From positions 1-48,499 of the forward strand of contig JBDRPL010000030.1 of assembly GCA_043827025.1 (NCBI GenBank): a stretch of DNA of 48,499 nucleotides, given 5' to 3'. Under the pieces are notes generated by a model. That model was given only the letters and a program-made list of their open reading frames with translations, was not told the origin of the DNA and did no database searches. Shown piece by piece: positions 9,181-39,151 of this stretch (position 1 is its first letter; each line of letters opens with the position of its first letter). The DNA is from Candidatus Micrarchaeota archaeon (GTDB taxonomy: Archaea > Micrarchaeota > Micrarchaeia > Anstonellales > Bilamarchaeaceae). Both the position numbers and the translations under genes were made by a program.

Positions 9181-9382
9181 TAGCCCTAACCGGATTTCCA
9201 GTTTTCTTTGGTGCGCCTAGCTTTCTTTTTTAAAAGAAAGGTGGGCATTCGAACCGATGTCCTGGGGACCAGAACCCCATATCCTTGACCATTGTCCAAG
9301 CAGGCGAAGAACTCGACTGCCTTTTGATTAAACTTTTGGCATGGTAAATCCAGAAGCCAAAAGTTTACTAGACGATAGGGCT
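9181..9382 (-). tRNA. tRNA-Gln(CUG) with two non-canonical introns: about 15/16 (9292-9367, 76 nt) and 59/60 (9195-9247, 53 nt)
   Basis: Spliced form AGCCCTATCGTCTAGTGGTCAAGGATATGGGGTTCTGGTCCCCAGGACATCGGTTCGAATCCGGTTAGGGCTA; BHB-like helices GTCT/GGAC and TTCG/TGGA. Confidence 0.88.
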
Positions 9383-9496
9383 ATCAACCTGAACCTATTG
9401 AGTCCAAGCTTTAACAAGCCACAATTTGGCCTGCCATCTGGAAAGAGAATATAGCACAGAAAGAAATAAAAGCTTAGATTCTTTGATACTAGTCGT

Positions 9497-9883
9497 ATGC
9501 AAATAGAAAAACTGAAGCTAGACGAAAAAGGGCGCATTGTGCTTCCCGCGAAATACAGGGATTACCTTGGGTTGGAATCTGGCGATTCTTTATTTGCGTC
9601 TCTTGATGAAAAAAATAAAAGTATAATCCTATCGATACATTCAGATTCTGATACCTATCTTTTGAGCATAGGGATGGGAGATGCGCCAGGAACGCTTGCA
9701 AAACTTGCAAAGGTTCTGGTAGACAATGAAGTTGATCTGATATCAACAGAATCCCATTCTACCAACAGAACAAAAAGCGCAGTCTGGAGAGTCATATGCA
9801 AACTTGATAAAAAGAAAATAACAAAGATAGAAAAGGAATTGAAGAAAGAAGGGGCTGTTTCTGTAGAGGTTAGGGCGGATTAA
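9497..9883 (+). CDS. AbrB/MraZ-like DNA-binding domain fused to an ACT domain (putative amino-acid-responsive regulator)
   Basis: KLDEKGRIVLPAKYRDYLGLESGD followed by DAPGTLAKLAKVL...VDLIS. Confidence 0.8.
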   Translation: MQIEKLKLDEKGRIVLPAKYRDYLGLESGDSLFASLDEKNKSIILSIHSDSDTYLLSIGMGDAPGTLAKLAKVLVDNEVDLISTESHSTNRTKSAVWRVICKLDKKKITKIEKELKKEGAVSVEVRAD

Positions 9884-10551
9884 CCTTCAAACCTCAGATC
9901 AGCATGTGATGGGACAATGATTATGTTTGACCAAGTTGCCCATTCCTCCATTTTTCTCAATTTAGAATCTGTTTTATGGTCCCGTACAGCCGTGCAGTCT
10001 TCTGGAATTATCAATCCATAATTAGCTTGAGATAAGGTCATAACTGCCCCCTTGAAGCAATTGTCAGTCGTGAATCCAACAAGAAGAATTCGGCTTCCAT
10101 CCCCTAACCATTGAATCAAGCCATTCGGTTTTCCACCGAAATGCCCTGTATGTTCTGAGGTGTCTTTCTTGAAAATTGGCTCACCACCATGTGGAATGTC
10201 TTCATAGATCTGCACGCGCCAATCAGGAGACGCACTGCCTGACTTTGGATTTGTTACAGAAGAATCAATAACACAAAGCAATGGATCAGGATAATCTGTA
10301 AACTGCCCTTTGGAATAATTTGCCGCAATCCAGCAAATAGGAACATTGTTTGTTCTAAGAGTGTCAACAAGCACAGATATGTTACCCGAAGCTTTCTGGA
10401 TACTGGCGATTCCACGTGTTGGATCGTTCTTCGCAGTATTTCCAAAGGAACCGTCAGGATGACAAAAGTCATTCTGTTTATCCACTACAACCGCACGAAT
10501 TCCCCTTTTGGATAAAGTTAGTGATGTATGTTTCATATTAAACACCTTCAA
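9880..10551 (-). CDS. Isochorismatase/cysteine hydrolase family protein
   Basis: VVVDKQNDFCHPDGS, IFKK, VGFTTDNC, IPEDCTA. Confidence 0.8.
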   Translation of the reverse strand: MKVFNMKHTSLTLSKRGIRAVVVDKQNDFCHPDGSFGNTAKNDPTRGIASIQKASGNISVLVDTLRTNNVPICWIAANYSKGQFTDYPDPLLCVIDSSVTNPKSGSASPDWRVQIYEDIPHGGEPIFKKDTSEHTGHFGGKPNGLIQWLGDGSRILLVGFTTDNCFKGAVMTLSQANYGLIIPEDCTAVRDHKTDSKLRKMEEWATWSNIIIVPSHADLRFEG

Positions 10552-10707
10552 TTATATTGCCACACATTAAGCTCTAGTGGGAATAATGTGGGAATAGGTT
10601 TAAAAACATTTCCATGCGTAATAGAAACAGCGCAAAACTAACAAAACGCTAGACTCAAGACCCGAAAGCCGGGACTAAAAACCGAAAACTGATTGGAGGT
10701 GTGCTAA

Positions 10708-10785
10708 ATGACAGAAACAAAAAATGCAAACGGAAGGGATTTACTTCATCAACCTAACCACACCCATAACACAGAAAAATGCTAG
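10708..10785 (+). promoter_or_regulatory. Putative his leader uORF (MTETKNANGRDLLHQPNHTHNTEKC) overlapping the 5' end of hisD
   Basis: GGAGGTG SD at 10695-10701, 6 nt before ATG 10708; three His codons; TAG at 10783-10785; the hisD frame is +1 relative to it. Confidence 0.5.
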
Positions 10786-12079
10786 GATATATTGCGGCGA
10801 AGAAGCAGAGCTTATTTTCCAAAGACTGAATGCAAGGTCAAATATAGATGTTTCAAAACCAGTGGGCGAACTTCTTGCAGAATTGGATTTGAAAGGATTC
10901 AGGGCAGTTGTTGAACTAACTAAAAAATTCGATAAATTCGATCTTAATCCTGAAAATATTCGAATTGGCAAAGAAGAGATTGCAGAACAAGCCGCTAAAA
11001 TTACTAAGAAACAAAAGGAATCGATTGACGAATCATTTGAACGAGTGTATTCATTCCAAAAAAAGGTTGCCGAATCTATAATACCGATTTGTGAAGAGAA
11101 GGATAGGCGAAACACAAAACTCGTTCCAAGGCCAATCGAGCGAGTCGGAATTTGGATACCTGGAGGATTAGCACCTTTACCCTCATCCTTACTTATGGCA
11201 GGAGCAACTGCAAGAGCTGCTGGAGTCAAGAGCCTAATTGGCATAACTCCCCCAAGAACCGAATTGAATCCTGCCGTTGCTTATATTCTACAAAAACTCG
11301 AAATCAAAGACATGTTCCGGATGGGTGGTGTTCCAGCAATATGGGCAATGGCAAATGGACTTGCGCCATATTTTGAAAAAGTAGATATGGTATGCGGTCC
11401 CGGAAATATGTATGTTGCAGAAGCAAAACGGCAGGTACGCGGACAGGGGAAAGTTGGGATTGATTTAGATGCTGGGCCTAGCGAAGTATTGATTCTGGCA
11501 GATGAAACCGCTAACTCCACATACGTGGCAGCAGACATGCTTGCACAGGCAGAGCACGGACCAACATCCCCAGGAATTCTGATAACTGATTCGGAAAGAA
11601 TTGCCAAAGAAACTCAAGAAGAAATAGGGATACAGCTGACAATGCTGAAAAGAGGGATGGAAACTGAAATTGCAATACAAGAATACGGTGGAATCCTACT
11701 TGTAAGGGATTTTGCCGAAGCGCTAAACTTGGCAAACCAATATGCTTCAGAGCACTTGGAGATATTCTGCTCAGATGAAACGCTTGAAAAAATACGTGGA
11801 TCACTTCCACCTGCAGGAGCTGTTTTCATAAGAACTGGCGAGGCATTCGCAGACTATGGATTCACAGGTGGAAACCACATACTTCCAACAGGAGGAAGTG
11901 CAAGATTCTCATCAGGGCTTTCTGCGCTTAGCTTCATCACTTGGCAATACCAGGAAGAAATGTCAGAGGGTGAGCAGAAAAAAGCAGCAGAAGGAACAGG
12001 CATTTTTGCAGATATAGAAGGATTGGAAGCACACGCAAATGCTGCAAGGATAAGGGATATTGAAAGTAAAGACAAATAG
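10724..12079 (+). CDS. hisD: Histidinol dehydrogenase
   Basis: VGIWIPGG, GPGNMYVAEAK, GIDLDAGPSE, DMLAQAEH, YASEHLE, GGNHILPTGGSARFSSGL, EGLEAHA. Confidence 0.95.
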   Translation: MQTEGIYFINLTTPITQKNARIYCGEEAELIFQRLNARSNIDVSKPVGELLAELDLKGFRAVVELTKKFDKFDLNPENIRIGKEEIAEQAAKITKKQKESIDESFERVYSFQKKVAESIIPICEEKDRRNTKLVPRPIERVGIWIPGGLAPLPSSLLMAGATARAAGVKSLIGITPPRTELNPAVAYILQKLEIKDMFRMGGVPAIWAMANGLAPYFEKVDMVCGPGNMYVAEAKRQVRGQGKVGIDLDAGPSEVLILADETANSTYVAADMLAQAEHGPTSPGILITDSERIAKETQEEIGIQLTMLKRGMETEIAIQEYGGILLVRDFAEALNLANQYASEHLEIFCSDETLEKIRGSLPPAGAVFIRTGEAFADYGFTGGNHILPTGGSARFSSGLSALSFITWQYQEEMSEGEQKKAAEGTGIFADIEGLEAHANAARIRDIESKDK

Positions 12080-12088
12080 GTGGAAAGA

Positions 12089-13795
12089 ATGGATAAAATA
12101 GCAAATAGCATTAGAAAAGAGATTCAAGAAATGTCGCCATATGCTGGCGGAGAAGTCATTGATATAGAAGTAAAACTGAACCAAAACGAATCCCCGTTCA
12201 ATCTACCAAAGAAGATAATTGAAAAGATAAAGCAGAAGATGGATTCAATAAAATTCAATAGATATAACGAAGGGTCCTTGAAAAGGCTCAGGGAACTGAC
12301 TGCCAAGAAGTTCAATGTTGATGCAAACCAGATAATCTATGGCTGCGGAATAGATGAATTGCTTTATTATCTAACAATGGCTGTTGTAGACAAGGGCAAC
12401 AAGATAGTTCGGCCAGTGCCAAGCTTTGGAATGTACAGGATATGCTCAAAGGTTTTTGGAGCAAACGACACACCAGTAATGCTGGACAAGAATTTTGAAT
12501 TGACTGAAGAATTCGTAAAAGAAAGCAAGGATGCGAAGCTGACATTCATCTGCAGGCCGAACAGCCAGACTGCAAACTCCTGGGACAAGAAAACTATTGA
12601 AAAGATAGTGAAAGAAACTTCGGGGATAGTTTGCATTGACGAGGCATACGCAGAATTTGCAAATGATGACTGCATGGATCTTCTGAAATACGACAATGTA
12701 GTGATAATGAGGACCTTCTCAAAGGCATATCTTGCAGCAGGGTTACGGCTTGGTTATGCAATTGGAAACAAAAGAATGATAGAGTTAATGAATAGGGTCA
12801 GATTGCCTTGGAATGTGAATGTTGTTTCACAGGCAATTGGGGAGATAATACTTGAAAACGAAGAAATATTCCAGGAAAGATTGGATAGGATAAAGGAGAA
12901 TAGAAGCAAACTAATTGAAGAAATGAAGAAAATTGTGAAAGTACTGCCAACTGAAACAAATTTCATTTCTTTTGAAGTTAAAAATCCAAAACAGATATGT
13001 GCTGAATTGAAAACAAGAGGAGTTCTGATACGAGACATAAGTAAGTATCCAATGCTTGAGAATTTCCTACGGGTGAATGTAGGCACAAATGAAGAAAACA
13101 AAAAGTTCATTGAAACATTAAAATCAATATTAGCTGGAAGAAATACCAAACTTAATGCAATAATCTTCGACATAGATGGTGTCCTAGTAGATGTTTCCAA
13201 ATCTTACAGGGAAGCAATAAAGTTGACTGTTGAAAAGTTCAGCGGAAGAAAGCCAAGCGATGAAGAGATTGAAGCTGTGAAGAAAAAACCAAACTCAAAC
13301 AACGATTGGGTTGTTACCTATGCACTTGCAACAGATTTCAAGAGAGACCTTTCGAAGATAGATAGAAATGATGGCGAATATTTGAAGATGAAGGCGCAAT
13401 TCCAGGAATACTATTTGGGCGGATTGATTGATAATGAGGAACTGTTGATTAAGCCCGAGAGTTTCAAAAAACTGGAAGCAAGAGGAATCAGAGTTGGAGT
13501 TGTGACCTCACGTCCAAGATACGAAGCACTCTATGTTTTGAAAAGAATTGGAAAATTCAATGAAGAAATATTTGATGAAGAGCTTGTGGTTGCGCAGGAA
13601 GACTGCGATGAGGAAAAACCATCGCCAAAGCCAATCAGAAAAGTGCTTGAAAGAATGAAGATCAAAGCTGGAGATGCAACATATATTGGAGACACCATCA
13701 ACGACAAACTGGCTGCCAACATGGCAGAAGTAATGTACGAAGAAGTAAACTCAGAACAAAATGTGAATGACATTCTAAGGAGGTTGTTGAAATGA
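12089..13795 (+). CDS. hisC: Histidinol-phosphate aminotransferase fused to a C-terminal HAD phosphatase (putative histidinol-phosphatase)
   Basis: KLNQNESPF, IDEAYAEF, RTFSKAY.AAGLRLGY; then IIFDIDGVLVDVSKSY, VTSRP, KPSP, YIGDTINDK. Confidence 0.92.
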   Translation: MDKIANSIRKEIQEMSPYAGGEVIDIEVKLNQNESPFNLPKKIIEKIKQKMDSIKFNRYNEGSLKRLRELTAKKFNVDANQIIYGCGIDELLYYLTMAVVDKGNKIVRPVPSFGMYRICSKVFGANDTPVMLDKNFELTEEFVKESKDAKLTFICRPNSQTANSWDKKTIEKIVKETSGIVCIDEAYAEFANDDCMDLLKYDNVVIMRTFSKAYLAAGLRLGYAIGNKRMIELMNRVRLPWNVNVVSQAIGEIILENEEIFQERLDRIKENRSKLIEEMKKIVKVLPTETNFISFEVKNPKQICAELKTRGVLIRDISKYPMLENFLRVNVGTNEENKKFIETLKSILAGRNTKLNAIIFDIDGVLVDVSKSYREAIKLTVEKFSGRKPSDEEIEAVKKKPNSNNDWVVTYALATDFKRDLSKIDRNDGEYLKMKAQFQEYYLGGLIDNEELLIKPESFKKLEARGIRVGVVTSRPRYEALYVLKRIGKFNEEIFDEELVVAQEDCDEEKPSPKPIRKVLERMKIKAGDATYIGDTINDKLAANMAEVMYEEVNSEQNVNDILRRLLK

Positions 13796-14415
13796 GAAAG
13801 GCTACTGAAAAAAGAGAGACAAGGGAAACGCAGATTACTGTGGAAATTGACCTTGACGGAACAGGAAAATCCGGAATAAATACAGGGATCGGATTCTTTG
13901 ACCACATGCTCACTGCGCTTTCCAGGTATTCCATGATTGACATGAAAATAGATGCAAAAGGCGATCTTGAAACAGGAACACATCACACCATTGAGGATGT
14001 TGGCATAGTACTAGGAAGCGCAATTGCAAAGGCACTTGGCGAGAAAAGAGGCATTAATCGTGCTGGATTCTTCGAATTTAAGTACATGATGGACGATGCT
14101 ATAGCTGAATCCATGATCGACCTTTCCGGAAGGGGAAGGCTGATATTCGAAGACAAGAATGGCGACCCGCTCAAGTACAGCTGTGAAGTCGTTGGAGCGC
14201 CAAACGGAGGATTTGCATCTGAAGACGTGAAGGAGTTCTTCTGGGCAATGGCAAGCAACATGAAAGCTAATATTGCAATTCGATTGACAACGGCAGGAAA
14301 TAGCCACCACGAAGTCGAAGCAACTTTCAAAGCATTCGGAAAGGCATTGCGCATGGCCTGTGAATACGATTCAAAATCAAAGGGCGAGGTGCCAAGCACA
14401 AAGGGAGTAATCTAA
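13792..14415 (+). CDS. hisB: Imidazoleglycerol-phosphate dehydratase
   Basis: RETRETQI, TGIGFFDHML, HHTIEDVGI, NSHHEVEATFKAFG, VPSTKG. Confidence 0.96.
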   Translation: MRKATEKRETRETQITVEIDLDGTGKSGINTGIGFFDHMLTALSRYSMIDMKIDAKGDLETGTHHTIEDVGIVLGSAIAKALGEKRGINRAGFFEFKYMMDDAIAESMIDLSGRGRLIFEDKNGDPLKYSCEVVGAPNGGFASEDVKEFFWAMASNMKANIAIRLTTAGNSHHEVEATFKAFGKALRMACEYDSKSKGEVPSTKGVI

Positions 14416-14443
14416 AGAGAAACGAAATTTACAGGTGATAAAT

Positions 14444-15250
14444 ATGAAAATAGCGATACCAAACAAGGGAAGATTATACGATAAGACAGTTGAACTGCTG
14501 GAATTGACTGGAATCAAAGTGCCAAAAAATGAAAGGAAATTGATTGCAAGCACGAACATCGAAGATATCAAGATAATATTTGCAAGGGCTTTGGACATTC
14601 CTTGGTATGTTGAAAGCAAGGCGGCTGATGTAGGCATAACCGGCGAGGACATGATAATGGAAAGCGGGGCAGATGTTGAAAAGCTGTTGAAACTGAATTT
14701 TGGAAGCTGCAGGATTGCACTTGCAAGCCAGAATGGAAAGAAAGATAGAATTGCAACAAAGCTTCCGAATATTGCGAAAAAATACTTTCCAAATGCCACA
14801 ATCATCAATATGAATGGAGGATGTGAAGCTGCACCAAAGCTGGGAATCTCAGATGCAATAGTGGATCAAGTAAGTAGCGGAGATACACTTAACGCGAATA
14901 ATCTGAATATTGATCGAATACTGTTCGAATCATCAATTTATTTGATCGGAAATTCGCAGAGCAAAGATGATGAAAAAGTCGAAGAATTGAAGCTGGGATT
15001 GGAAGGTGTGCTAACTGCAGAGGAAAAGAGATACATAATGTACAATGTCACAAGCGACAAGGACCTGAAAACAGCTGTGAAAGTCACGCCGGCAATGGAA
15101 AGCCCAACTGTTCTGAAACTGGCAAAGGAAGGCGAATATTCTGTGCATTCTGTTGTTGATGTGAAAGAATTGATGCCTGCAATCCGAAAGATCAAGGAGG
15201 CTGGAGGAAAGGACATACTTGTATTAAACATGTCTCGAGTAGTGTCCTGA
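14444..15250 (+). CDS. hisG: ATP phosphoribosyltransferase (long form)
   Basis: KIAIPNKGRL, ARALDIP, DVGITGED, DAIVDQVSSGDTL, C-terminal regulatory domain SPTV. Confidence 0.95.
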   Translation: MKIAIPNKGRLYDKTVELLELTGIKVPKNERKLIASTNIEDIKIIFARALDIPWYVESKAADVGITGEDMIMESGADVEKLLKLNFGSCRIALASQNGKKDRIATKLPNIAKKYFPNATIINMNGGCEAAPKLGISDAIVDQVSSGDTLNANNLNIDRILFESSIYLIGNSQSKDDEKVEELKLGLEGVLTAEEKRYIMYNVTSDKDLKTAVKVTPAMESPTVLKLAKEGEYSVHSVVDVKELMPAIRKIKEAGGKDILVLNMSRVVS

Positions 15251-15273
15251 CGAAATCTAGATCAGAATTTGAT

Positions 15274-15864
15274 GTGATGAAAATGATAGGGATCATTGAT
15301 TACGGAGCTGGGAATGCTGCAAGTGTAAAAAACGCGCTTGACAAGCTTGGTGTTGGATCAGTGATAACCAGCAACATAGAAAAAATGGAAAAATGCGATT
15401 CACTAATATTACCAGGGGTCGGAGCTTTTGGGAATGCTATGGATTCGTTGAAGGGCAAAATCCAAATGATAAATGATTGGAAGAAACCATTTCTTGGCAT
15501 ATGTCTTGGGATGCAGGTACTATTTGAAAGAAGCGATGAGAATCCAGAAGCAGAAGGACTGGGCATCATTAAGGGAAGCGTGAGGAAATTCAATGGAATT
15601 CGGACTCCGCAAATAGGTTGGAACAAAATCGAAAATGTAAAAGGACAGTTATTCGACAAAGAAGGTTTCGTGTATTTCGTCAACTCATATTATTGCAAAC
15701 CGGATGCAAACGAAAATGTAACGACCAGCACAACAAATTACGGAATTGAATTCGTTTCATCTGTGCGGAAGAACAATTTCTATGGTGTGCAGTTCCACCC
15801 TGAAAAGAGCAGTGAGTTCGGTTTGAAGATTCTTGAAAGATTTGCGAGGTTGTCCAAATGCTAG
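15274..15864 (+). CDS. hisH: Imidazole glycerol phosphate synthase glutaminase subunit
   Basis: IDYGAGN, LPGVGAF, LGICLGMQ, GVQFHPEKS. Confidence 0.96.
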   Translation: MMKMIGIIDYGAGNAASVKNALDKLGVGSVITSNIEKMEKCDSLILPGVGAFGNAMDSLKGKIQMINDWKKPFLGICLGMQVLFERSDENPEAEGLGIIKGSVRKFNGIRTPQIGWNKIENVKGQLFDKEGFVYFVNSYYCKPDANENVTTSTTNYGIEFVSSVRKNNFYGVQFHPEKSSEFGLKILERFARLSKC

Positions 15865-16526
15865 TGATACCTGCAATCGACCTGCTTGACGGCAAATGCG
15901 TGCGCCTTGTGCAAGGCAAAAGAGAGCTGTGCACCGTTTACTCTGATGATCCAATCAAAACAATTGAACAGTTCAAGAAAGACGGTGCAAAACTAGTCCA
16001 CGTTGTTGATCTTAATGGGGCGTTCGAAGGCAGCATGAAGAACTTCGAAATTATTGCAAAACTAGCTGCAATTGTTGAGATAGAGGTGGGTGGAGGAGTG
16101 CGAACAAAGGAAAGGATTGACCAGCTAAAGAGTATTGGAGTAAACAGAATAATCGTTGGGACAAACCTGGATGAACTGAAAAAATACGGAGTTATCGGAG
16201 GATTGGATTTCAAAGACGGAAAGCTTGCAACAAATGGATGGATAAAGAACAAAGAAATCGAAATTGGCGAACTGCTTGAAGGAATGAAAGAGGTCATTGT
16301 CACAGATGTTAAAACAGATGGCATGTTACAAGGACCAAATCTGGAACTCATCAAACAAATCAAATCATTTGGAATTGAAGTAATTGCATCAGGTGGGATC
16401 CGAAGCCTGGATGATCTAATGGAACTGAAAAAAATAGGGGTTAATGGCACCATAATCGGAAAGGCGATTTACGAAGGAAAAATAAACCTGAAGGAGGCGA
16501 TTCAAAAGTGTTGGCTAAGCGCATAA
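15858..16526 (+). CDS. hisA: ProFAR isomerase
   Basis: IPAIDLLDGKCVRLVQG, HVVDLNGA, EVGGGVR, DGMLQGPN, IASGGI. Confidence 0.95.
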   Translation: MLVIPAIDLLDGKCVRLVQGKRELCTVYSDDPIKTIEQFKKDGAKLVHVVDLNGAFEGSMKNFEIIAKLAAIVEIEVGGGVRTKERIDQLKSIGVNRIIVGTNLDELKKYGVIGGLDFKDGKLATNGWIKNKEIEIGELLEGMKEVIVTDVKTDGMLQGPNLELIKQIKSFGIEVIASGGIRSLDDLMELKKIGVNGTIIGKAIYEGKINLKEAIQKCWLSA

Positions 16527-17263
16527 TTCCTTGCCTGGACATGGCAGATGGGCGAGTGGTAAAAGGAACTAACTTCATCGACCTAAGGGATGCCGGAGAT
16601 GCAGTTGAACTTGCCAAATATTATTATGAAAATGGTGCGGATGAACTTTGCTTCCTAGACATAACAGCAACAGTTGAAACCCGAGAACCAATCTATGAGA
16701 TGATCAAAAAGGTTGCAAAGGAGATATTCATTCCATTTTCAGTAGGCGGAGGCATAAAAACAGTTGAAGATGCTGAAAGGATATTGAAGTGCGGGGCTGA
16801 GAAAATTGTAATCGGAAGTGCTGCAGTAAGGAATCCGAATCTGATACAAAAGCTAGCAAATAAGTTTGGAAGCCAGGCAGTTGTAATATCTATTGACGCC
16901 AAAAGAAATGGAATGGGGTGGAACCAATTCATAAACGGTGGGAGAGTTAATAGTGAAATAGATACGATTGAATTCGCCAAGACGATGGAGCAGTTTGGCG
17001 CAGGCGAGATATTGCTCAATTCGATTGACAAGGATGGAACCAAAAAAGGGTTTGATATTGAATTGTGCAATGCAGTATGCAAAGCAGTTAATATTCCAGT
17101 GATTGCCTCAAGCGGAGCCAAAAACGTTGGCAGTTTCGTGGAAGTTTTCCAGAAGACGGATGTTAATGCCGCATTGGCAGCAAGCATATTCCACTTCGGA
17201 GAAGTACGAATTGGAGATTTGAAAAATAAACTAAAGGAAAAAGGAGTTGAGATACGTGATTAG
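16508..17263 (+). CDS. hisF: Imidazole glycerol phosphate synthase cyclase subunit
   Basis: LAKRIIPCLD, VVKGTNF, GADELCFLDIT, GAGEILLNSIDKDGT, AALAASIFH. Confidence 0.97.
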   Translation: MLAKRIIPCLDMADGRVVKGTNFIDLRDAGDAVELAKYYYENGADELCFLDITATVETREPIYEMIKKVAKEIFIPFSVGGGIKTVEDAERILKCGAEKIVIGSAAVRNPNLIQKLANKFGSQAVVISIDAKRNGMGWNQFINGGRVNSEIDTIEFAKTMEQFGAGEILLNSIDKDGTKKGFDIELCNAVCKAVNIPVIASSGAKNVGSFVEVFQKTDVNAALAASIFHFGEVRIGDLKNKLKEKGVEIRD

Positions 17264-17831
17264 ATTCAACAAAAATGGCCTTGTGCCAATAATAATTCAG
17301 GATGCGAATACAAAACAAGTACTTTCATTGTTCTATGCGAACGAAGCATCAATCCAAAAAATGAAAGAAACTGGGTTTGTCTATAGATATTCCAGAAGCA
17401 AGGGAAAAGTAATGAAAAAGGGGGGGGAATCAGGAAACGTGCAGAAAGTAGTTGAAATAATTGAGGATTGTGATTCTGACGCACTGCTTGTCTTGGTTGA
17501 GCCAAGAGGGCCCGCTTGCCACAAGAATACTACCTCCTGTTTTGAGGATTCGGTTTTCGCATCGCCAATTTTGGAAAGACTAGGACAAATAATTGAAGAA
17601 AGAAAAAAGAATCCAAAAGAGGGCAGCTACACTTGCAAGTTGCTTGCCGATAACGAATTACTTAAATCAAAGCTAATGGAAGAGCTAGACGAACTGATAA
17701 ACTTCAAAGACAAAGATAATCTAGCCTGGGAAGCTGCAGATTTGATATATTTCATCATGGTTTTTATTAAGAAGAACAATAGAAATATCAAGGATGTTGA
17801 AAAAGAGCTTGAAAAGAGAATGCTGAAGTAG
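17256..17831 (+). CDS. hisIE: Bifunctional phosphoribosyl-AMP cyclohydrolase / phosphoribosyl-ATP pyrophosphatase
   Basis: GLVPIIIQD, KGGESGN, DCDSDALL, GPACH...SCF; then GSYT, EE...E, WEAADLIY. Confidence 0.93.
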   Translation: MIRFNKNGLVPIIIQDANTKQVLSLFYANEASIQKMKETGFVYRYSRSKGKVMKKGGESGNVQKVVEIIEDCDSDALLVLVEPRGPACHKNTTSCFEDSVFASPILERLGQIIEERKKNPKEGSYTCKLLADNELLKSKLMEELDELINFKDKDNLAWEAADLIYFIMVFIKKNNRNIKDVEKELEKRMLK

Positions 17832-17862
17832 ATTATTTAATTTTACATGCCATCATTCTGCT

Positions 17863-18243: not shown

Positions 18244-18282
18244 ATGGTTTAATTACCCAGCCTGCAATAATCCGAAATACGT

Positions 18283-22357: not shown

Positions 22358-23005
22358 TTATAAAAGAACCCTTCCCAATCTAATCATATCACTTCCTTCT
22401 TTTATCGCTATTTGGTAGTCTTCACTCATACCCATTGATGTTTTGAGCTTGTATTTGTCAGCCAGTTTCTTGACTTCTACGAAAACCTGCTTCTTATTTT
22501 CCCCTAAAGTACCCATTGACATCAAACCAATCAATTTGATGTTTGGAAGTGTTCTGACAAATTGAACAAGATCACCGACTTCCTTTGGAGACACTCCCGC
22601 CTGATCCTTGTTATAATCGGCATTCACCTGAATATACACATCGACATTCAGCTTCTCCTCAACCGCAACCTTCGAAATCTTTTCCGCCAGTTTCCTAGAA
22701 TCAACAGTTTGTATTGTCCCAAATAATTTAACCGCATCACGGACCTTATTGCTCTGGAGATGGCCGATGAAATGATAGCGTTCCCTTGGAACTTTTGTCC
22801 AGCGCTTCAGTGCATCCTGTAGATAATTCTCACCGAAAACAAGCTCATTGAATCTAATCAGGTCTGCAACGTGTTCATTATGTGCGTATTTACATGCGAA
22901 CAGAATTTGCACGTGATTCGGAATCAAACGCGAGATTTCAGCATACCTTATCACGTGTTTGGGAAAGAAATTCGCGATTTCTTCGGGTCTTTGTGGAGCG
23001 GGCAT
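22358..23005 (-). CDS. yggS: YggS/PLPBP pyridoxal phosphate homeostasis protein
   Basis: FGENYLQD, HFIGHLQSNKV, IQVN, GLMSM, SMGMSEDYQIAIKEGSDMIRLG. Confidence 0.93.
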   Translation of the reverse strand: MPAPQRPEEIANFFPKHVIRYAEISRLIPNHVQILFACKYAHNEHVADLIRFNELVFGENYLQDALKRWTKVPRERYHFIGHLQSNKVRDAVKLFGTIQTVDSRKLAEKISKVAVEEKLNVDVYIQVNADYNKDQAGVSPKEVGDLVQFVRTLPNIKLIGLMSMGTLGENKKQVFVEVKKLADKYKLKTSMGMSEDYQIAIKEGSDMIRLGRVLL

Positions 23006-30949: not shown

Positions 30950-31002
30950 GGTTATGTTGTCGTTGCATAAACTTTTAATTACCTTCTGTAAACAATGAAA
31001 GC

Positions 31003-31845: not shown

Positions 31846-32594
31846 GAGTATTGGCAATTTCGGACATCCATGATGACGAAGTCTGTCTAGAGAAAGTAAA
31901 GGCATTCTGCAACAAAAACGAATTTGATCATATTTTGATTGCAGGAGATATCACAAAACACTCCATTTCATTTCTTGAAGAGGTGCTTGAGGCGCTTCCT
32001 AATTCTTTCATCATACCTGGCAATAATGAGGATGCGAAAGTATTGGCTAAAATGAAAAAATACGATGGATATCTTCATGAAAAGATTGGATTCCTAAGAA
32101 ACGTTTTGGCTGAGCGCACATCTACTATCGATGAAAAGGGAAATAGATATGAAGAACATGAAATGGCAGACACTTATCCAATAGTTGGTTTTGGATTCTC
32201 GAACATAACTCCATTTGGGACACCTGGTGAGCTCACGGAAGACGAGATTTACGAAAGGATGAGCAAACTACCGATAGATGAGAAAACGATATTGCTCTGC
32301 CATTGCCCACCTTATGGCTATTTTGACACTACACCAAATGGCGAACATGTTGGAAGTAAAAGCATCTGGAAGATAATTCTTGAGAAAAGGCCTCTTATGG
32401 CATTGTTTGGGCACATCCATGAATTAGAGGGTGTTAATGAAGTAAAATTTCCCAATTCACTTGGACAGACGCTTCTTGTGAAGATACCTGCTGCGCCAAG
32501 CGGAAGGGCTGTGGTTATTAATCCTAATGCAGAAGAAACTCCAAAGGTTGCTTTTGTGAAGTTGTGGGACAATGGAAATCAGGATAATAAGTGA
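31842..32594 (+). CDS. Calcineurin-like metallophosphoesterase
   Basis: ISDIH, AGD, PGNNE, HCPP, HVGS, GHIHE. Confidence 0.88.
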   Translation: MRVLAISDIHDDEVCLEKVKAFCNKNEFDHILIAGDITKHSISFLEEVLEALPNSFIIPGNNEDAKVLAKMKKYDGYLHEKIGFLRNVLAERTSTIDEKGNRYEEHEMADTYPIVGFGFSNITPFGTPGELTEDEIYERMSKLPIDEKTILLCHCPPYGYFDTTPNGEHVGSKSIWKIILEKRPLMALFGHIHELEGVNEVKFPNSLGQTLLVKIPAAPSGRAVVINPNAEETPKVAFVKLWDNGNQDNK

Positions 32595-32955
32595 AACCGA
32601 GATATTGGATGTTTTGAAATTAATTGCAAAACTGTTCCCAAAGGCCTACCCTGTTTTGAAAGAGAATGACCAGATATATGTGGCAATTGAAGGGGAAAAA
32701 ATCATAGGATTCCTCCACATGACTGAGAAGGAAGACAAAATACTTTTGAATGGAATCGGGATTGTTGAAGAATATAGAGGAAAACACGTTGGCACAAAGC
32801 TCATGGGGCACCTTATTGACGAAGCCAAAGACAGGCCGATTTACCTAAAAGTCACTGAGAAGAACTTTATCGCACAAGCACTTTATGAAAAATTCGGGTT
32901 TGTTCCGAAGAGATATGGAAGGAGATATGTGTTGGTCAAGAGTCCTGAGAATTAG
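32572..32955 (+). CDS. GNAT (RimI-like) acetyltransferase
   Basis: IGIVEEYRGKHVGTKL, LKV...N..AQALYEKFGF. Confidence 0.85.
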   Translation: MEIRIISETEILDVLKLIAKLFPKAYPVLKENDQIYVAIEGEKIIGFLHMTEKEDKILLNGIGIVEEYRGKHVGTKLMGHLIDEAKDRPIYLKVTEKNFIAQALYEKFGFVPKRYGRRYVLVKSPEN

Positions 32956-32997
32956 GAAGTTTTATAATCTCTTTTGTGGTGAAATAAACCTACAAAT

Positions 32998-33264
32998 GGG
33001 GTCGTGAGGTAAAGCTTTGAACGGTTCGTTCAAAATTTGTGCACCGTTCGAGGCGCACAACCTGGTTATCCGGCTGGCTTTGGGAGCCTGTTATCTGTGA
33101 AAACTTTTGGGAAAAATTCGGTCATGAAACCTTCCGGTTTCATGGGCGTACGTGAACAAAGTTCACGAACGTTATCAAAACCTAGATTCCAAAAAGTTTC
33201 AGAAATTCAAATGCTTCCAAGACCCGAAACGCGGGACTGGAAACTGATAATCACGGCGACCCCA
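32998..33264 (+). tRNA. tRNA-Pro(UGG) with three non-canonical introns: D-loop (about 33013-33060, 48 nt), 53/54 (33100-33205, 106 nt), 59/60 (33212-33250, 39 nt)
   Basis: Spliced form GGGGTCGTGAGGTAACCTGGTTATCCGGCTGGCTTTGGGAGCCTGTTATCTGTGTTCAAATCACGGCGACCCCA (74 nt); anticodon at 33081-33083; BHB helix TCTG/CAGA at intron 2; D-loop boundaries ambiguous by 1-2 nt. Confidence 0.82.
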
Positions 33265-33452
33265 TTTTGTTTACAAAATGGTGGGGGAAGCGAACTCTGT
33301 TCGCAACGACCCCATTTAAACTTTCTTTCTTGTAAGAAAGAAACTTCAACCATGAACCAAAAGTTCATGGGCGTACGTGAACAAAGTTCACGAACATAAT
33401 GAAAGAAAGAACCTGTTGAGGAAGTGAACAGCAGTTCACAACTATCCCATTT
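33265..33452 (+). repeat. Palindrome-rich tRNA-Pro 3' trailer with duplicated tRNA 3' end and a copy of intron sequence
   Basis: CGACCCCATTT repeated at 33307-33317; 32-bp copy of intron 2 at 33364-33395; several GAAC-n-GTTC and CTTTC-n-GAAAG hairpins. Confidence 0.75.
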
Positions 33453-33461
33453 ATTCTATTT

Positions 33462-34445: not shown

Positions 34446-34549
34446 TTTTTACCTTAATTCAATTTTTTCTCTAATAATTTAATGAATGATAAGAAATTTA
34501 AGGCTAATCTTTATTATTTATGAAATATAAGTTATAGTTGGTGTTAATT

Positions 34550-36412
34550 ATGAGTGATAAACCAGATGTTCCAATCGAAGTCATAAGATTGCTTTCAAGC
34601 CCTGACACGTCAGTCAGAATAGCTACGCTTGAAACACTAGATAATACGGCAGTAATACATCTAGCAAAACACGCACAGGATAAGGAGTTGAGGATGGCTG
34701 CAATAAGAAAGGCAAAGGAAAAAGGCATTGTCATCTACGAAAAAAGTTTGAGCGTTTATGACGAGGACGAGCTTTTGCTGCTGGCCAGTTTTGCAAATAA
34801 AAATGTCCTTATTGACATGGCTACGCAGGAGTGGCTTCCGATTAAAGCAAGGCTTGCTGCAATAGAAAGGCTCAAGGCTGACCAGGAGGCGCTGCTTGCA
34901 ATTCAAGAGAAGGTTGCAAAAATAGCAGGGGATAAAAACGGAGAGATTTTGGAGGAATGTGCAAGGTCACTCCTACAGGTAGGCGTAGAAGATGGGCAAA
35001 CAAGCACCCAACACTCATATATTGCCGCTTATTCGAAAGATACGCGCGAGAGCCTTGAACGCATTGAACAGATAGGTGATGAAAATAAGCTTCAATCAAT
35101 TGGAATGGAAAGCAAGGATCCAATTGTTCGCAAGGCTGCATTTGGAAAAATGACAGATGAAAGGCTGATTGCAAAGGCAATATCCCTCTATTTGGGAAGA
35201 TTTGTCATGGGAATGGCAGGGCCAGTTGATGAATTCCGATTGTCAAAAGGCTGGCGCGAAGCCATAGACAGACTCGTGGAATTGGATAAAAAAGATGCAG
35301 CAGTGGAAGCAATACGCCAACTCAGAAATGGAAATTACTATGATTGTGCAGAAAAATATCCTGAAAGGGTTCGCGTAGCGATAACCTATCTGCTTGAAAA
35401 AGCATGGGAACCCAAAGACGAGAAAGAGGTTTACTTGGTTGTTGATCAATTGTCTGATCCCAAGATCCTGGAGAAATACCTTCCAAGGCTAGGAGCTAAA
35501 AGACTGATTGAACTAGCAGGGAGTTCTAGGCTAAAAGCAACTCGAATAGCTGAAATGACAGAAGATCAAAAGGTATTGCTTGGGATTGCATTACGCTGGC
35601 GAAAGGGAGAAAGAATTTACTGGCAGGCGGAATTCCTCGGATATGATAAAGATGGAAAATCAGTCGAACGCCCAAGACATGCTGTGTCAGAACCAGCAAA
35701 AAAAGCAATAGCCAAGATGGATGCACAGAGACTCTATGAAATCATAATCAAATTATCGAATATGGGAGAAAACTGGGAAGAAGTATGGGACACCGCAGAG
35801 TATGCAACGCAAAGAGTGCTTGGAATGAGGCATAGCCTTGACCCTGCAAAAGAAGACGAAGCAATGCTTCTTTTCCTTGTAACAATCCATTCGAAAGACC
35901 CACTCTCAAGAGAAAATGCATTTGAAAGGATAAAGGATTTGCCAGGATTTGCAGAAGCTGTGCTGGTGCATCGCTGTTCGTTTTGCAGTGTAAATGATTG
36001 GGTTGTGGCAAAAGACAAAACTCCGGACAAGACATTAGTTGCTGCACTTGAAGTGCTTCGTTCAACAGACATGGATGGATTTGTCAGGGTCCTTGCAACA
36101 AGAGAGGACATTATGGCAGGGATACGGGCAGATTATCAGAAAGTGAGATTTGCGAAGAATGCAGTCATACAGAGGATAAATGATCCCATGCTGTTGCTTA
36201 GGATAATCCAGGCAAAACCTTATAGAAAAACGCTTGTTGAGTGCGAAGAACAGTTAAGAAAGCTTGGATTTGACCCACAATTGCTGAGAGAAATGGCAAG
36301 AAACCCTCTTGCTCGTGATGGTGAAAGTGTTGACGCACCAAAGCTTGGACGGCCTGTTCCCACAGCATGCGGAGGCTGTCCTTTTGCAGTGAAAAGAGTT
36401 ACTAGGGAGTAG
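34550..36412 (+). CDS. Hypothetical alpha-helical repeat protein with an RNPLARDGE C-terminal motif
   Basis: HEAT-like units (DTSVRIATLETL, DKELRMAAIRK, DPIVRKAAFGKM, DPLSRENAFERI). Confidence 0.7.
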   Translation: MSDKPDVPIEVIRLLSSPDTSVRIATLETLDNTAVIHLAKHAQDKELRMAAIRKAKEKGIVIYEKSLSVYDEDELLLLASFANKNVLIDMATQEWLPIKARLAAIERLKADQEALLAIQEKVAKIAGDKNGEILEECARSLLQVGVEDGQTSTQHSYIAAYSKDTRESLERIEQIGDENKLQSIGMESKDPIVRKAAFGKMTDERLIAKAISLYLGRFVMGMAGPVDEFRLSKGWREAIDRLVELDKKDAAVEAIRQLRNGNYYDCAEKYPERVRVAITYLLEKAWEPKDEKEVYLVVDQLSDPKILEKYLPRLGAKRLIELAGSSRLKATRIAEMTEDQKVLLGIALRWRKGERIYWQAEFLGYDKDGKSVERPRHAVSEPAKKAIAKMDAQRLYEIIIKLSNMGENWEEVWDTAEYATQRVLGMRHSLDPAKEDEAMLLFLVTIHSKDPLSRENAFERIKDLPGFAEAVLVHRCSFCSVNDWVVAKDKTPDKTLVAALEVLRSTDMDGFVRVLATREDIMAGIRADYQKVRFAKNAVIQRINDPMLLLRIIQAKPYRKTLVECEEQLRKLGFDPQLLREMARNPLARDGESVDAPKLGRPVPTACGGCPFAVKRVTRE

Positions 36413-36419
36413 TTGACTT

Positions 36420-37355
36420 ATGAAAAAATTAGTTCAGACCCAAAGTGTCAAAATTCGTCAGAGCCCTGCGAAAAAATCAAAATGGCAAAAATTCAAGGAC
36501 AATGCAGACGGCCATTTTCTGATGACAAGGCCCTATTCGCTTGCAGAATATCCGTTAACCACGATGGTAGCAAAAACAAACATTACTCCAACGCTCGAAC
36601 CGTCCTTGTTGGATGGCGCGAGTTTAGCTGCAACAACTCTGCAATGGGCAGCACTTTGCTGGAACTTGGAATCGGTGCACAAGCATGCCAATCGTCCGGA
36701 AATAAGCAAAAAAGTTGCGAATGTCGCGTTCGGAGTTGCTGTAACTATTGGAGCAATTGTTAATCCAATGACATTGGCATTTTCAGCAATGCATTACTTG
36801 ACCTGCAGATCATACGCCAAGAAGGAGGGCGAATCAAATTTGCTGGGGGCTGCAAGTTTCTTGATACGTGGTGCTGGTCAAACAGCACTTTACTTTTTTT
36901 CTCAATGTTTTTACACAAGCACTCTATCTACCAAAAGCCTATTGGTTGGAGGGGCAGTGGGACTGGCGATTGCAGCCAGAAACCTGATTGGCGACCTAAG
37001 AGATATAAAATACGACAAAAAAACATTTCCAATTGTCTTCGGAGAAACAACTTCAATGGTAACTGCAAGTCTTCTGAAAATTGGGGCATGTGGATTATTG
37101 TATGCAACATTTGGATCAGTGTTGATGGGTGCACCATTGCTAATCGAAAGTGCAATAGGAGTGTTCTACAAACACCATCAGAACATGCACAGGATTTCAG
37201 TCGTAGGGTTTAGCGCTACCTTGGCCAATATTGTACTCGCAAATTTAGGCATTATGGAAGCAACGATATTGGTCAACCTGGTTTACTTGTCTTCCCTTGT
37301 TGGAACTGTTTTCTACAACAAGGTGGCAAGGGCCAGTAATCAAGATTACGAATAA
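36420..37355 (+). CDS. UbiA-superfamily prenyltransferase-like membrane protein (divergent)
   Basis: LMTRPYS, multiple TM helices, RNLIGDLRDIKYD..TFPIVFG. Confidence 0.65.
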   Translation: MKKLVQTQSVKIRQSPAKKSKWQKFKDNADGHFLMTRPYSLAEYPLTTMVAKTNITPTLEPSLLDGASLAATTLQWAALCWNLESVHKHANRPEISKKVANVAFGVAVTIGAIVNPMTLAFSAMHYLTCRSYAKKEGESNLLGAASFLIRGAGQTALYFFSQCFYTSTLSTKSLLVGGAVGLAIAARNLIGDLRDIKYDKKTFPIVFGETTSMVTASLLKIGACGLLYATFGSVLMGAPLLIESAIGVFYKHHQNMHRISVVGFSATLANIVLANLGIMEATILVNLVYLSSLVGTVFYNKVARASNQDYE

Positions 37356-37374
37356 ATTAGTTAAGAATAGCTAA

Positions 37375-37446
37375 AGCCCCTGACGAGAGTTGAACTCGCG
37401 GCCTCAGGTTTACGAAACCCGCGCTCTACCACTGAGCTACAAGGGC
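37375..37446 (-). tRNA. tRNA-Thr(CGU), intronless
   Basis: GCCCTTGTAGCTCAGTGGTAGAGCGCGGGTTTCGTAAACCTGAGGCCGCGAGTTCAACTCTCGTCAGGGGCT cloverleaf. Confidence 0.95.
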
Positions 37447-37491
37447 ATTATAAACGAGAAATAAGCTAAAAAGGGATTAAAAGGTTAATGA

Positions 37492-38763
37492 CTAGCCAGA
37501 CTCGTGCGTTGCAAATATTTGTTCACCAGGCCTTACCTTACGAGCATAGCATATCCTGTCCTTTCCAGTGTCTTTTGCATAGTACATTGCCTGGTCTGCA
37601 AGAGATACCATAACCATGATTAGTTGTTTTGCCTCTGAAACATGGTCAAAATCAGGATTCGAGTCGCGAATCTTATTAAGGTCTACCTGTCTGCTATCCA
37701 TAAGATGTTTGGCTGTCCTGGCATCAACAACTCCAAAACTCGCAGTAATGTCTGTTTTATCTTTGATGTTCCTTCGAACCCTGGAAATTGCGCTCAAGGC
37801 ATTTCCTTGGTCACAACCAAGAAGAACCATGTTTTCTTCGCCACCATATCTGCCAACCAGATCACGGGAACCTTTTCTTTCCCTGACAGTTGCACGTGTG
37901 ACTAAAGCAACTTTCCTCAAAACACGATCACCTTCAGGATGACCGTATTTTTCATTAAAGTTTCTAAAGTAATCAATATCGCTCATTCCAAATGAAAAAT
38001 TGAGCTCTTCCGCAGGGGTAGATATATACCTATCTGCATATGAGATGAGACTAGTAAAGAATATGTCTCTTGTAAGCAGTTTTGTAAGAGGGTCGAGCTG
38101 CCTTGCAACCAGGGCATAAAGATTTCGTGCTGCAGAAGCAAGAAATGCCATACTGGAAAGCATGAAGAACTTCCCCTTTAATCTCAGATCCTTTCCTTTA
38201 AGGATTATGCAACCTATCAATCTATCCGAATCACTTGCTTTTAGAGGTATAATGATTTTTTGACCCTCACCACTCTCAGAATTAAAACTTACCCTACCCA
38301 GGACAAAATCACCAACTTCCAATGAAAATGAATCTATCCTCCTTCTTTTTTTGTCTACGAAAAAACCCAAAGTTCCATTGTTTGTGGCAATACACCTTCC
38401 AACCAAACTTGATTCTGTTAAACTGATGTCGGGAAGATCATGGTTTGGCTTGAGCCCATACTTTGCAGTAGTATCTAAAGACACGTAGTGCTCCAGGGTC
38501 AAAGGATCTGATTCTGAACATAGGTACAATGAAACCCCCTTAACATATCTCAATTGATCTGAAACAGTACTAAGAAAAGCGGTAACGCTGAAAGAATCCT
38601 CTGAATTCATTATGCCTGAAAGGTGATAAAGCTGAGGTCCGATTGCTGTTGGACGAGCCACAAATCTTGCAAAAAGACTGTTTCTTCTTCTTAGTTGAAG
38701 CTGTTCTAACTGAGGCAGAGCCAAGCTGGTGGATCTTCTTCCAGAGACTAATAGTTTTGTCAT
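37492..38763 (-). CDS. GGDEF-domain (diguanylate cyclase-like) protein with a possible GAF-like N-terminal domain
   Basis: DPLTKL, SDIDYFRNFNEKYGHPEGDRVL, VGRYGGEEN, TASFGV, ADQAMYYAKDTGKDRI. Confidence 0.88.
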   Translation of the reverse strand: MTKLLVSGRRSTSLALPQLEQLQLRRRNSLFARFVARPTAIGPQLYHLSGIMNSEDSFSVTAFLSTVSDQLRYVKGVSLYLCSESDPLTLEHYVSLDTTAKYGLKPNHDLPDISLTESSLVGRCIATNNGTLGFFVDKKRRRIDSFSLEVGDFVLGRVSFNSESGEGQKIIIPLKASDSDRLIGCIILKGKDLRLKGKFFMLSSMAFLASAARNLYALVARQLDPLTKLLTRDIFFTSLISYADRYISTPAEELNFSFGMSDIDYFRNFNEKYGHPEGDRVLRKVALVTRATVRERKGSRDLVGRYGGEENMVLLGCDQGNALSAISRVRRNIKDKTDITASFGVVDARTAKHLMDSRQVDLNKIRDSNPDFDHVSEAKQLIMVMVSLADQAMYYAKDTGKDRICYARKVRPGEQIFATHESG

Positions 38764-38807
38764 ATAAATATATTTTATACAACAAATACTTTAAAAGGAT
38801 ATGTTTA

Positions 38808-38898
38808 TAGCAAATAAGCAAAATATTCGGACATTTATTGCTTATTTGCTAGCTAGCAAGTTGCAAATAAAAAGTTCGATTATTTTTGCAACTTGCTA
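38808..38898. repeat. Two adjacent related inverted repeats
   Basis: TAGCAAATAAGCA...TGCTTATTTGCTA (38808-38851) and TAGCAAGTTGCAAA...TTTGCAACTTGCTA (38854-38898). Confidence 0.8.
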
Positions 38899-38916
38899 TT
38901 AGAGCAAAAATAAGAG

Positions 38917-38971
38917 AAAAACGCCAGCAGGCCTGAACTGCAGTTCAGGAGCTAGCATTTTGTAAACAAAA
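38917..38971 (-). repeat. tRNA-Ser 3' trailer element
   Basis: TTTTGTTTACAAAA-TGCTAGC-T-CCTGAACTGCAGTTCAGG-CCT-GCTGGCG-TTTTT; CTGGCGTTTT duplicated. Confidence 0.7.
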
Positions 38972-39151
38972 CGCCAGGAGCAGGATTTGAACCTACAATC
39001 CTTTCGGACTCGCTAACTCTTTTTGATTACCGATTGAAACCCGAATGGGTTCAATGGTCCATTGAACGCTTTGCGTTCAATCGGAAACTTTTTAGGTTAA
39101 CCGAAAAAGTTTATTCGAGGCGAGCGCACTACCGGATTATGCGACCCTGGC
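38972..39151 (-). tRNA. tRNA-Ser(CGA) with a 99-nt canonical 37/38 intron (39015-39113)
   Basis: Spliced form GCCAGGGTCGCATAATCCGGTAGTGCGCTCGCCTCGAAAGCGAGTCCGAAAGGATTGTAGGTTCAAATCCTGCTCCTGGCG, with long variable arm. Confidence 0.9.

Follow-up and report, generated by a model that had tools for sequence, protein, structure and literature searches.

How do introns come to lie at unrelated positions of archaeal tRNA genes? The question is raised by a 48,499-nucleotide contig of a Candidatus Micrarchaeota archaeon (JBDRPL010000030.1, assembly GCA_043827025.1; hereafter, the window), whose tRNA introns an earlier note had described as a shared kit of palindromic modules. We found that many tRNA introns of this genome open with one repeat, which we call cassette A, and that introns differ between close relatives, which together give a testable clue to intron gain in archaea. 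We lean toward the explanation that cassette A is a spreading DNA repeat of the triplex type, defined by its structure.

tRNA introns of the window and its genome

We searched the genome that holds the window (G000, in which the window is contig C30; 1.33 Mb, 92% complete, Micrarchaeota-like) with a tRNA profile built from 41 intron-free tRNAs of relatives, permitting intron jumps and refining the boundaries; seven genes were hand-seeded. The search gave 57 introns in 34 of 40 tRNA genes, with 24 at position 37/38, 15 at 59/60 and 18 at other sites. Some isoacceptors are absent from the 40 genes recovered by this search of a 92% complete genome. Nine introns in six tRNAs had been claimed for the window, and the refined search bore this out: Lys(CTT) and Gln(CTG) have two each, Pro(TGG) three, Ser(CGA) and Gly(TCC) one each, and Thr(CGT) none. 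Positions 9292 and 39113, which bounded that claim, are both intron ends, and all motifs quoted for it are present in the sequence.

Three tracts of cassette A covary

Cassette A spans 30-55 bases and consists, in order, of a 5-bp lower stem (often GAAAC or TAAAC), a pyrimidine tract, a loop of 2-30 bases, a purine tract, the returning lower stem, a 3-base linker (ATC, ACC) and a mirror purine tract. An order-wide pattern search that imposed no complementarity found 136 copies in 46 of 176 genomes, and the backwards pattern found none. At each of places 1 to 5, a C in the pyrimidine tract is accompanied by a G at the same place in both purine tracts. Among the archaeal copies (60 of the 136), the third base is G at 15 of 17 C-G pairs and A at 270 of 271 T-A pairs, with 12 non-Watson-Crick cells; at least 110 distinct metagenome copies, with three free positions, gave G at 27 of 28 and A at all 289, with 13 other cells. 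Pooling the two sets (for the metagenome part, among the matches listed) gives G at 42 of 45 C-G pairs and A at 559 of 560 T-A pairs, counts that overstate the effect because the copies are related and not independent.

Where the purine tract is asymmetric (29 copies), the third tract is its mirror in 23 cases, a direct copy in none and neither in 6. The lower stem shows compensatory changes among copies; the linker base beside the last C, taken as the third base, is identical to that of the 3' arm in 62 of 66 distinct copies; a spacer of 8 is fixed; and loop sequences are common across families. The mirror tract has no Watson-Crick pairing in register, and a triple helix would explain it. We infer such a fold from the three covarying tracts, which are a triple-helix signature. 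The tRNA strand would form a purine-motif triplex (A.A-T, G.G-C) and the opposite strand a pyrimidine-motif triplex (T.A-T, C.G-C), following the classes in the relevant passages of PMC13541005. A kink-turn was set aside, as inspection by eye gave no tandem G-A pattern on the sense strand. GNA triloops of the DNA type were not retained as a sign of a DNA fold, the range of loops pointing neither way.

One element accounts for most of the shared modules

We compared the introns of G000 with dinucleotide-shuffled versions of themselves. The AAACTT(T/C)T..A(A/G)AAGTTT stem occurs in 10 of 57 introns (shuffled mean 0.035), GAAC-n-GTTC in 8 (0.73), the ATCAAAA-type word (A/C)ATCARRAA in 10 (0.93) and CTTTCTT-n-AAGAAAG in 1 (0.015). 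The earlier note had named a lack of enrichment over background as the result that would count against shared modules; all four motifs exceed the shuffled introns. Local alignment placed 28-38 of the 57 introns in similarity families at two lower thresholds and 21 at the highest, against 0-2 for shuffled introns. Clustering whole introns, with our own alignment scoring, placed 13 of 57 in cross-isotype families at 70% identity and none at 80%. Because half to two thirds of the introns share modules when none cluster across isotypes at 80%, a whole-intron test can miss a real route of intron arrival.

The idea of a kit shared by unrelated sites thus held for the sub-intron modules common to those 28-38 introns and failed as to separate modules, since the modules are mostly one element. 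The words AAACTTTT/AAAAGTTT, AATCAAAA and CTTTCTT/AAGAAAG are present, and all are parts or variants of cassette A, whose defining feature is the mirror tract, beyond a mere palindrome. The CTTTCTT-n-AAGAAAG hairpins are G-containing variants with a mirror tail of 8 bases in the Gln 59/60 intron and of 10 in the Pro trailer. GAAC-n-GTTC hairpins do lie in the Pro and Ser introns and in trailers; they are only partly a module of their own. This module B, a double hairpin with GAAC-n-GTTC cores, is nested exactly between the foot of cassette A and its linker, with no duplication, in the Ser intron, the Pro trailer and leaders of a congener (G001). Trailers and leaders in which a tRNA end recurs hold further GAAC-n-GTTC hairpins. 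Copies of the tRNA 5' end of at least 7 bases lie upstream of 11 of 40 genes (control 2) and copies of the 3' end downstream of 5 of 40 (control 2), or 16 of 40 in all (11 upstream plus 5 downstream, one gene counted twice). Rfam has no family for the modules, in the window or at 20 cassette loci.

Other intron families and leader features were seen in G000. Leu(CAA), Leu(TAG) and Gln(TTG) have a common 54-nt 59/60 intron family without cassette A, found in G001 in Ser(GGA), and Lys and Ile have a common 17/17a family; introns of these two families (listed as T-loop introns) lie on contigs C5, C6, C10, C19 and C25. The Pro 59/60 intron (33212-33250), the Ala(GGC) 37/38 intron and the Leu(TAA) 59/60 intron make up a small family; by eye, the Pro intron also resembles window 10655-10695, upstream of the histidinol dehydrogenase gene. 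That gene belongs to a histidine biosynthesis cluster (10724-17831; hisD, hisC fused to a HAD domain, hisG), which is unusual in DPANN genomes. Leaders of Leu(TAA, TAG, CAG), Ser(TGA, GGA), Val(TAC), Met and Phe hold a mini-hairpin that copies both acceptor-stem strands, followed in most by a TCAYWTTCRTTC-like spacer and then position 1; such mini-hairpins could compete with acceptor-stem folding.

Cassette A lies in tRNA introns and flush with gene ends

The tRNA genes and modules of the window are as follows.

3925..3975, minus strand: Lys trailer, with two hairpins, one of them GAAC-AAA-GTTC, and 6 nt repeated from the tRNA 3' end
3976..4127, minus strand: tRNA-Lys(CTT), with introns at 17/17a (4070-4110) and 37/38 (4012-4048) and no clear cassette A
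9181..9382, minus strand: tRNA-Gln(CTG), with two introns
9195..9247, minus strand: Gln 59/60 intron, 53 nt, with a cassette A variant at 9202-9245 assigned by eye; its tracts TTTCTTTT and AAAAGAAA and mirror AAAGAAAA escape the detectors
9292..9367, minus strand: Gln 15/16 intron, 76 nt, with cassette A at 9320-9367 from intron base 1; the cassette tail has an alternative 4-base pairing with the loop
32998..33264, plus strand: tRNA-Pro(TGG), with three introns (D-arm, 53/54, and 59/60 at 33212-33250)
33007-33054 or 33013-33060, plus strand: Pro D-arm intron, 48 nt
33100..33205, plus strand: Pro 53/54 intron, 106 nt, with a degenerate cassette A, whose 5' arm is predicted to form an 8-bp intron helix of the splicing motif, and module B (double hairpin) at 33119-33171
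33265..33316, plus strand: Pro trailer, with two hairpins, one of them GAAC-TCT-GTTC, and 8 nt repeated from the tRNA 3' end
33317..33411, plus strand: free cassette A, its mirror tract 10 bases long, holding module B at 33347-33396; identity to the Pro intron copy is 93% over 41 nt
37375..37446, minus strand: tRNA-Thr(CGT), intronless
38917..38971, minus strand: Ser trailer, with two hairpins, one of them GAAC-n-GTTC, and 6 nt repeated from the tRNA 3' end
38972..39151, minus strand: tRNA-Ser(CGA), with a 99-nt 37/38 intron (39015-39113)
39019-39113, minus strand: Ser intron cassette A, with module B at 39029-39084 between hairpin foot and ATC linker
39893..40008, minus strand: tRNA-Gly(TCC), with a 44-nt 59/60 intron (39907-39950)
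40010..40049, plus strand: inverted cassette A abutting position 1 of tRNA-Gly(TCC), absent from the earlier note

A strict generic detector gave 24 matches in G000: 12 in introns, 4 at tRNA flanks (3 of them under spurious open reading frames of the coding mask) and 8 elsewhere, and the reversed genome gave 9. Cassette A lies in 12-14 of the 57 introns, against 0.08 in shuffled ones. The 8 matches off tRNA loci compare with 9 in the reversed genome, and therefore cassette A has not spread through ordinary intergenic DNA of G000. The comparison of intron with intergenic density proposed earlier came out divided in this way, with enrichment in introns and at tRNA ends and no dispersal in other intergenic DNA. 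A relaxed detector found the cassette in 14 of the 57 G000 introns and in 22 of the 39 G001 introns; 30 of these 36 copies begin at intron base 1 or 2. Inverted copies lie flush with tRNA position 1 at the window Gly gene, at Ala(TGC) and at several genes of G001, and also in a few introns; in another genome (G155), sense copies lie flush behind the tRNA 3' end. An 11-nt repeat of the tRNA 5' end precedes the three leader copies only; where a copy lies in an intron, the exons are intact. The Gly(CCC) intron and the Arg(CCT) leader have 40 nt in common without a mismatch.

Among 30 order-wide loci, 22 are sense in tRNA introns, 1 is antisense and 7 lie elsewhere, including an insertion in 23S rRNA and 2 copies overlapping a stop codon. 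The 123 metagenome loci comprise 21 copies in tRNA introns (19 sense, 2 antisense), 4 copies at tRNA flanks and 98 with no detectable tRNA nearby. In viral sequence, 63 stretches carry the motif (backwards control, 0), several in contigs labelled as giant-virus metagenome-assembled genomes; the viral copies are often intergenic, tandem or just behind a stop codon.

Single loci show further settings. In G000, a roughly 45-nt insertion in the 16S rRNA gene (C24, about 22590-22640, minus strand) opens with the cassette 5' arm and keeps the outer pairing, with the inner arm decayed; it is probably a bulge-helix-bulge (BHB) rRNA intron. Six loci (L102, L128, L133, L134, L171, L172) have a cassette with an AGGTG-like loop word and an ATG that immediately follows the third tract, an arrangement resembling a cassette set across a translation start. 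Four others (L061, L062, L073, L152) lie in a conserved, noncoding-looking stretch of about 300 bases found in several Micrarchaeota genomes, and L296 (G070 contig C10), beside C- and D-box-like words, lies perhaps inside a C/D box small RNA.

The introns are predicted to be spliced by a broad-specificity endonuclease

Predicted splicing restores a normal cloverleaf: ARAGORN accepted the spliced products of all 40 tRNA genes of G000. Thr is the sole window tRNA that ARAGORN, without intron search, and Rfam detect as it stands. Across 31 genomes of the order, the number of Rfam tRNA matches in a genome varied from 2 to 63; intron load thus appears very patchy, and low counts in such genomes would be an annotation artefact. 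The BHB central helix, formed by exon end and intron end and flanked by bulges, has 3 or 4 of 4 pairs in 55 of the 57 introns, a test that is partly circular because boundaries were picked partly by this score. Weak motifs include the 48-nt Pro D-arm intron, which can be placed at 9/10 or 15/16 with 2-3 of 4 pairs, and the Gly 59/60 intron, with 2 of 4. An intron-side helix of at least 6 bp occurs in 12 of 18 introns at sites other than 37/38 and 59/60, versus 5 of the remaining 39 (p = 0.0008), in a comparison where boundary refinement gave this helix some weight. The exon-side helix is mostly absent at those other sites, and the excess of intron-side helices there is what selection for splicing predicts.

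The splicing endonuclease gene of G000 (392 aa) is a full-length match to PDB 4FZ2, its best PDB match (442 bits), which we take to be the epsilon2 enzyme of ARMAN-2. By sequence, the G000 enzyme is of the epsilon2 type, with predicted broad specificity. Passages of PMC3239211 report that epsilon2 EndA of ARMAN-2 (Ca. Micrarchaeum acidiphilum) cleaves strict and relaxed BHB motifs and that ARMAN-2 tRNAs carry introns at 53/54 and 59/60. The two systems are alike in these intron positions, in relaxed BHB motifs and in a full-length endonuclease homologue; unlike the introns here, those assayed in that work are 13 and 25 nt long, and its relevant passages make no mention of repeats (PMC3239211).

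Introns turn over among relatives

Fixation of introns across relatives had been named as the other result that would count against intron gain; instead, the introns vary. From part of the congener G001 (74% complete) we recovered 23 tRNA genes, 22 with a G000 orthologue, and corrected mis-spliced calls by eye. The sets of intron positions differ in 16 of the 22 tRNAs, agree in 5 and are ambiguous in 1, and only one intron at a shared position is at least 80% identical. A 409-nt DNA contig of a close relative (run X5, depth 4.1) differs from window 32829-33099 at 20 of 271 letters and runs from there straight into the T-loop, so that precisely the 106 nt of the Pro 53/54 intron are missing; its 59/60 intron has diverged. 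Of two other X5 joints, 38998-39114 was set aside, with 31 letters on its short side and probably from another organism's tRNA, and 33303-33439, whose intervening sequence is not known, is a hint only.

G070, a genome of another family, has 22 near-identical cassette copies, and the cassette is missing from 18 of the 23 genomes in its genus. Of 16 G070 loci examined, 13 lie in tRNA introns. This burst looks like spread. The defined end of the cassette, the empty site in a close relative and the burst genome together make insertion testable. Whether hairpins use introns as a refuge or create new ones had been posed as alternatives, and there is evidence for both. Minimal introns of 14 and 17 nt at Gln 15/16 and 59/60 in relatives, and the predicted folding of the remainder of the window Gln 15/16 intron as a hairpin of its own, speak for refuge. 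For origin speaks the Pro 53/54 intron, which starts with the cassette arm that forms the 8-bp intron helix and is absent as a whole in the relative.

A REP or MITE label for cassette A is not supported

The earlier note had called the hairpins similar to repetitive extragenic palindromes (REPs) and miniature inverted-repeat transposable elements (MITEs), a label that we do not retain. REPs are defined by a GTAG/GTGG foot and intergenic abundance in the passages of PMC6006769, and another class, as described in part of PMC3733652, by a CGTC tag, an 8-9 bp stem and a loop of 4-5 bases. No GTAG or GTGG tetranucleotide was found 5' of the hairpin foot in the listed feet and linkers. CGTC or CCTC lies by the stem in 3 of 36 copies and CATC, AATC or CACC in 25, with loops of 2-30 bases. 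Failing the first definition and fitting the second poorly, cassette A is not supported as a REP. The terminal inverted repeats and fixed target duplication of a MITE were likewise not found, the exons being intact at intron copies. Like the REPs linked to REP-associated tyrosine transposases, as far as these sources describe them (PMC3733652, PMC6006769), cassette A consists of short hairpins, with nesting, tandem arrays, lineage bursts and a few CGTC/CCTC tags; it differs in its predominant CATC/AATC/CACC tag, its loop range, its mirror tail, its lack of intergenic copies in G000 and the lack of a REPtron.

Association with Y1 transposases was not found either. TnpA occurs in 14 of 46 cassette-positive and 30 of 130 cassette-negative genomes (p = 0.33); the burst genome G070 has no TnpA match; and the introns' cassette A has matches near only a few of 31 TnpA loci. 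G000 has three IS200-type TnpA genes and no TnpB domain. Reverse transcriptase and IS110 each occur in one of five cassette-rich genomes and tyrosine integrase in two, and none of these tracks with the cassette. In G000, a reverse transcriptase gene at C11:17188-18293 is split across two reading frames, and the endonuclease gene, an IS200 tnpA and tRNA-Arg(CCT) with its leader cassette lie within 3 kb (C6:9100-11900; L056, L053). A short repeat in five copies (C18:3408, C26:8792, C21:4987, C10:12804, C9:47790), one of them between tRNA-Met and tRNA-Phe, matches a hairpin upstream of the C6 tnpA; by sequence it looks like a non-autonomous IS200 derivative separate from cassette A.

Weighing the explanations

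The observed sequence, enrichment, covariation, flush placement and turnover can be joined with a predicted triple helix, putative mobility and predicted splicing as follows. Cassette A would move between loci and land with its hairpin foot flush with a boundary, such as a splice site, a tRNA end or a stop codon. In G000, copies would survive almost exclusively where they are no burden: next to tRNA genes, and within BHB introns, or as such introns, cut by the epsilon2 endonuclease. Where the exon helix is missing (positions 15/16, 53/54 and 58/59), the 3' arm of the cassette, present a second time close to the end of the intron, would often supply the intron-side helix; as this helix is needed for splicing, the cassette could seed an intron as well as enter an old one. 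The second, double-hairpin module would nest inside cassette A. Only tentatively do we entertain the wider proposal that one triplex-folding element, common to small archaea, bacteria and giant viruses, inserts at boundaries of genes and stems by its own mechanism and, through its arms, creates new spliceable introns in the tRNAs of Micrarchaeota.

Besides the relatedness of the copies, several results weigh against a spreading triplex repeat. No detectable cassette A is present in 43 of the 57 introns of G000. In five intron-rich relatives it lies in 2 of 27 sampled introns, so it is not a general source of introns (by eye, three introns of G016 carry a variant with an open lower stem). The empty Pro site is one contig at depth 4.1, placed at 85% likeness, with gain versus loss not polarised. 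No mobilising enzyme among TnpA, reverse transcriptase, IS110 and integrase tracks with the cassette, and the triplex of TMECO, a bacterial repeat of similar design, was not detected in vivo according to the passages of PMC4666352. Intron copies are strongly sense (12 of 12 in G000, 22 of 23 in the order set), which also fits a role as RNA.

That role has a clearly smaller chance: the cassette would be an RNA module selected by the host, either a hairpin onto which a third strand docks or a pseudoknot of the H type. Gene conversion would copy it from one stable-RNA gene to another, and it would help fold, pace or protect the pre-tRNA or recruit a protein. In G000 it is confined to tRNA loci and a decayed copy in the apparent 16S intron; in several long-loop copies the tail pairs by eye with 3-5 loop bases, which covary; and the opposite strand would have a pyrimidine-motif geometry like that of the telomerase pseudoknot (triples in the passages of PMC13541005). 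However, general loop-tail pairing is significant at one position only in the archaeal set (36 vs 23) and absent in the metagenome set, the cassette is missing from most introns and many relatives, and the motif also occurs in viral and other non-tRNA DNA and in tandem arrays. Purine-motif triplexes are moreover said not to form in RNA (a passage of PMC4666352, citing its ref. 43). A true REP/MITE, the non-autonomous end moved by IS200-type Y1 transposases, seems unlikely to us. A tRNA with a cassette is closely followed by one of the three TnpA genes, a module other than cassette A is common to the Val(CAC) and Ser(GGA) introns and the DNA upstream of two of these genes, and insertion free of duplication fits Y1 chemistry; these points stand against the lack of the foot, the TnpA distribution and the different sequence of the five-copy repeat that does match an IS200 end. 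We think it more unlikely still that whole introns were transposed between tRNA genes and that the cassette is the remnant of an old intron family. The 70% families fit, as does the resemblance of the G000 Thr(GGT) intron to the G001 Ala(CGC) intron; at 80% there is none, against 28.3% in Thermoproteales (reported in passages of bioRxiv 10.64898/2026.10.13.758758), and free, inverted, nested and tandem copies and copies in viral contigs do not fit. Recurrent origin by fold-back or slippage replication in A/T runs, with no common descent, is very improbable. The stems are of low complexity, and the tRNA-end copies flanking 16 of 40 genes suggest local template switching, but fold-back would yield inverted and not mirror repeats, and the fixed spacer also speaks against it; the loops shared across families and the empty backwards-pattern controls largely refute it.

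Relation to known repeats and intron families

Multi-intron tRNAs in this lineage, intron sharing in Thermoproteales and bacterial triplex repeats are each already known. Searches of the open-access literature returned no paper linking the three, nor any account of archaeal tRNA introns that hold a triplex or mirror repeat. A 2026 Asgard tRNA census, which clustered whole introns, calls the route of intron arrival open in the passages of bioRxiv 10.64898/2026.10.13.758758, and gives cross-isotype families at 80% for 28.3% in Thermoproteales and 1.5% in Asgard; transposition of whole introns was proposed for Thermoproteales (Fujishima et al. 2010, as summarised in parts of that census and of PMC4090602). 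There, whole introns are alike; here, the shared unit is a sub-intron cassette that also lies outside introns. If true, the supply of the BHB intron-side helix by the cassette arms would be a concrete route of intron gain that is invisible to whole-intron clustering.

The closest design is that of the BoxC/PIT/TMECO repeats, which form a triplex in vitro, vary between strains and have no known mobilising enzyme, as described in the passages of Holder et al. 2015 (PMC4666352); the word 'tRNA' does not occur in that paper. Three-way covariation is evolutionary evidence of selection on an intrastrand triple helix, which has not been shown in vivo for BoxC/TMECO. Cassette A shares with these repeats, as there described, the order of pyrimidine tract, loop, purine tract, 3-base linker and purine tract, a length of about 30-40 bases, a dispersed distribution that is patchy between relatives, and the lack of a known mobilising enzyme. 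It differs in its A/T-rich tracts of 4-10 bases on a 5-bp lower stem, where BoxC/PIT/TMECO has G/C-rich tracts of 9 bases, and in its archaeal setting in tRNA introns and flush with gene ends, with nested modules, where BoxC/PIT/TMECO is intergenic only. Judged from its tracts and their arrangement, cassette A has the same design as BoxC/PIT/TMECO and belongs to a different family.

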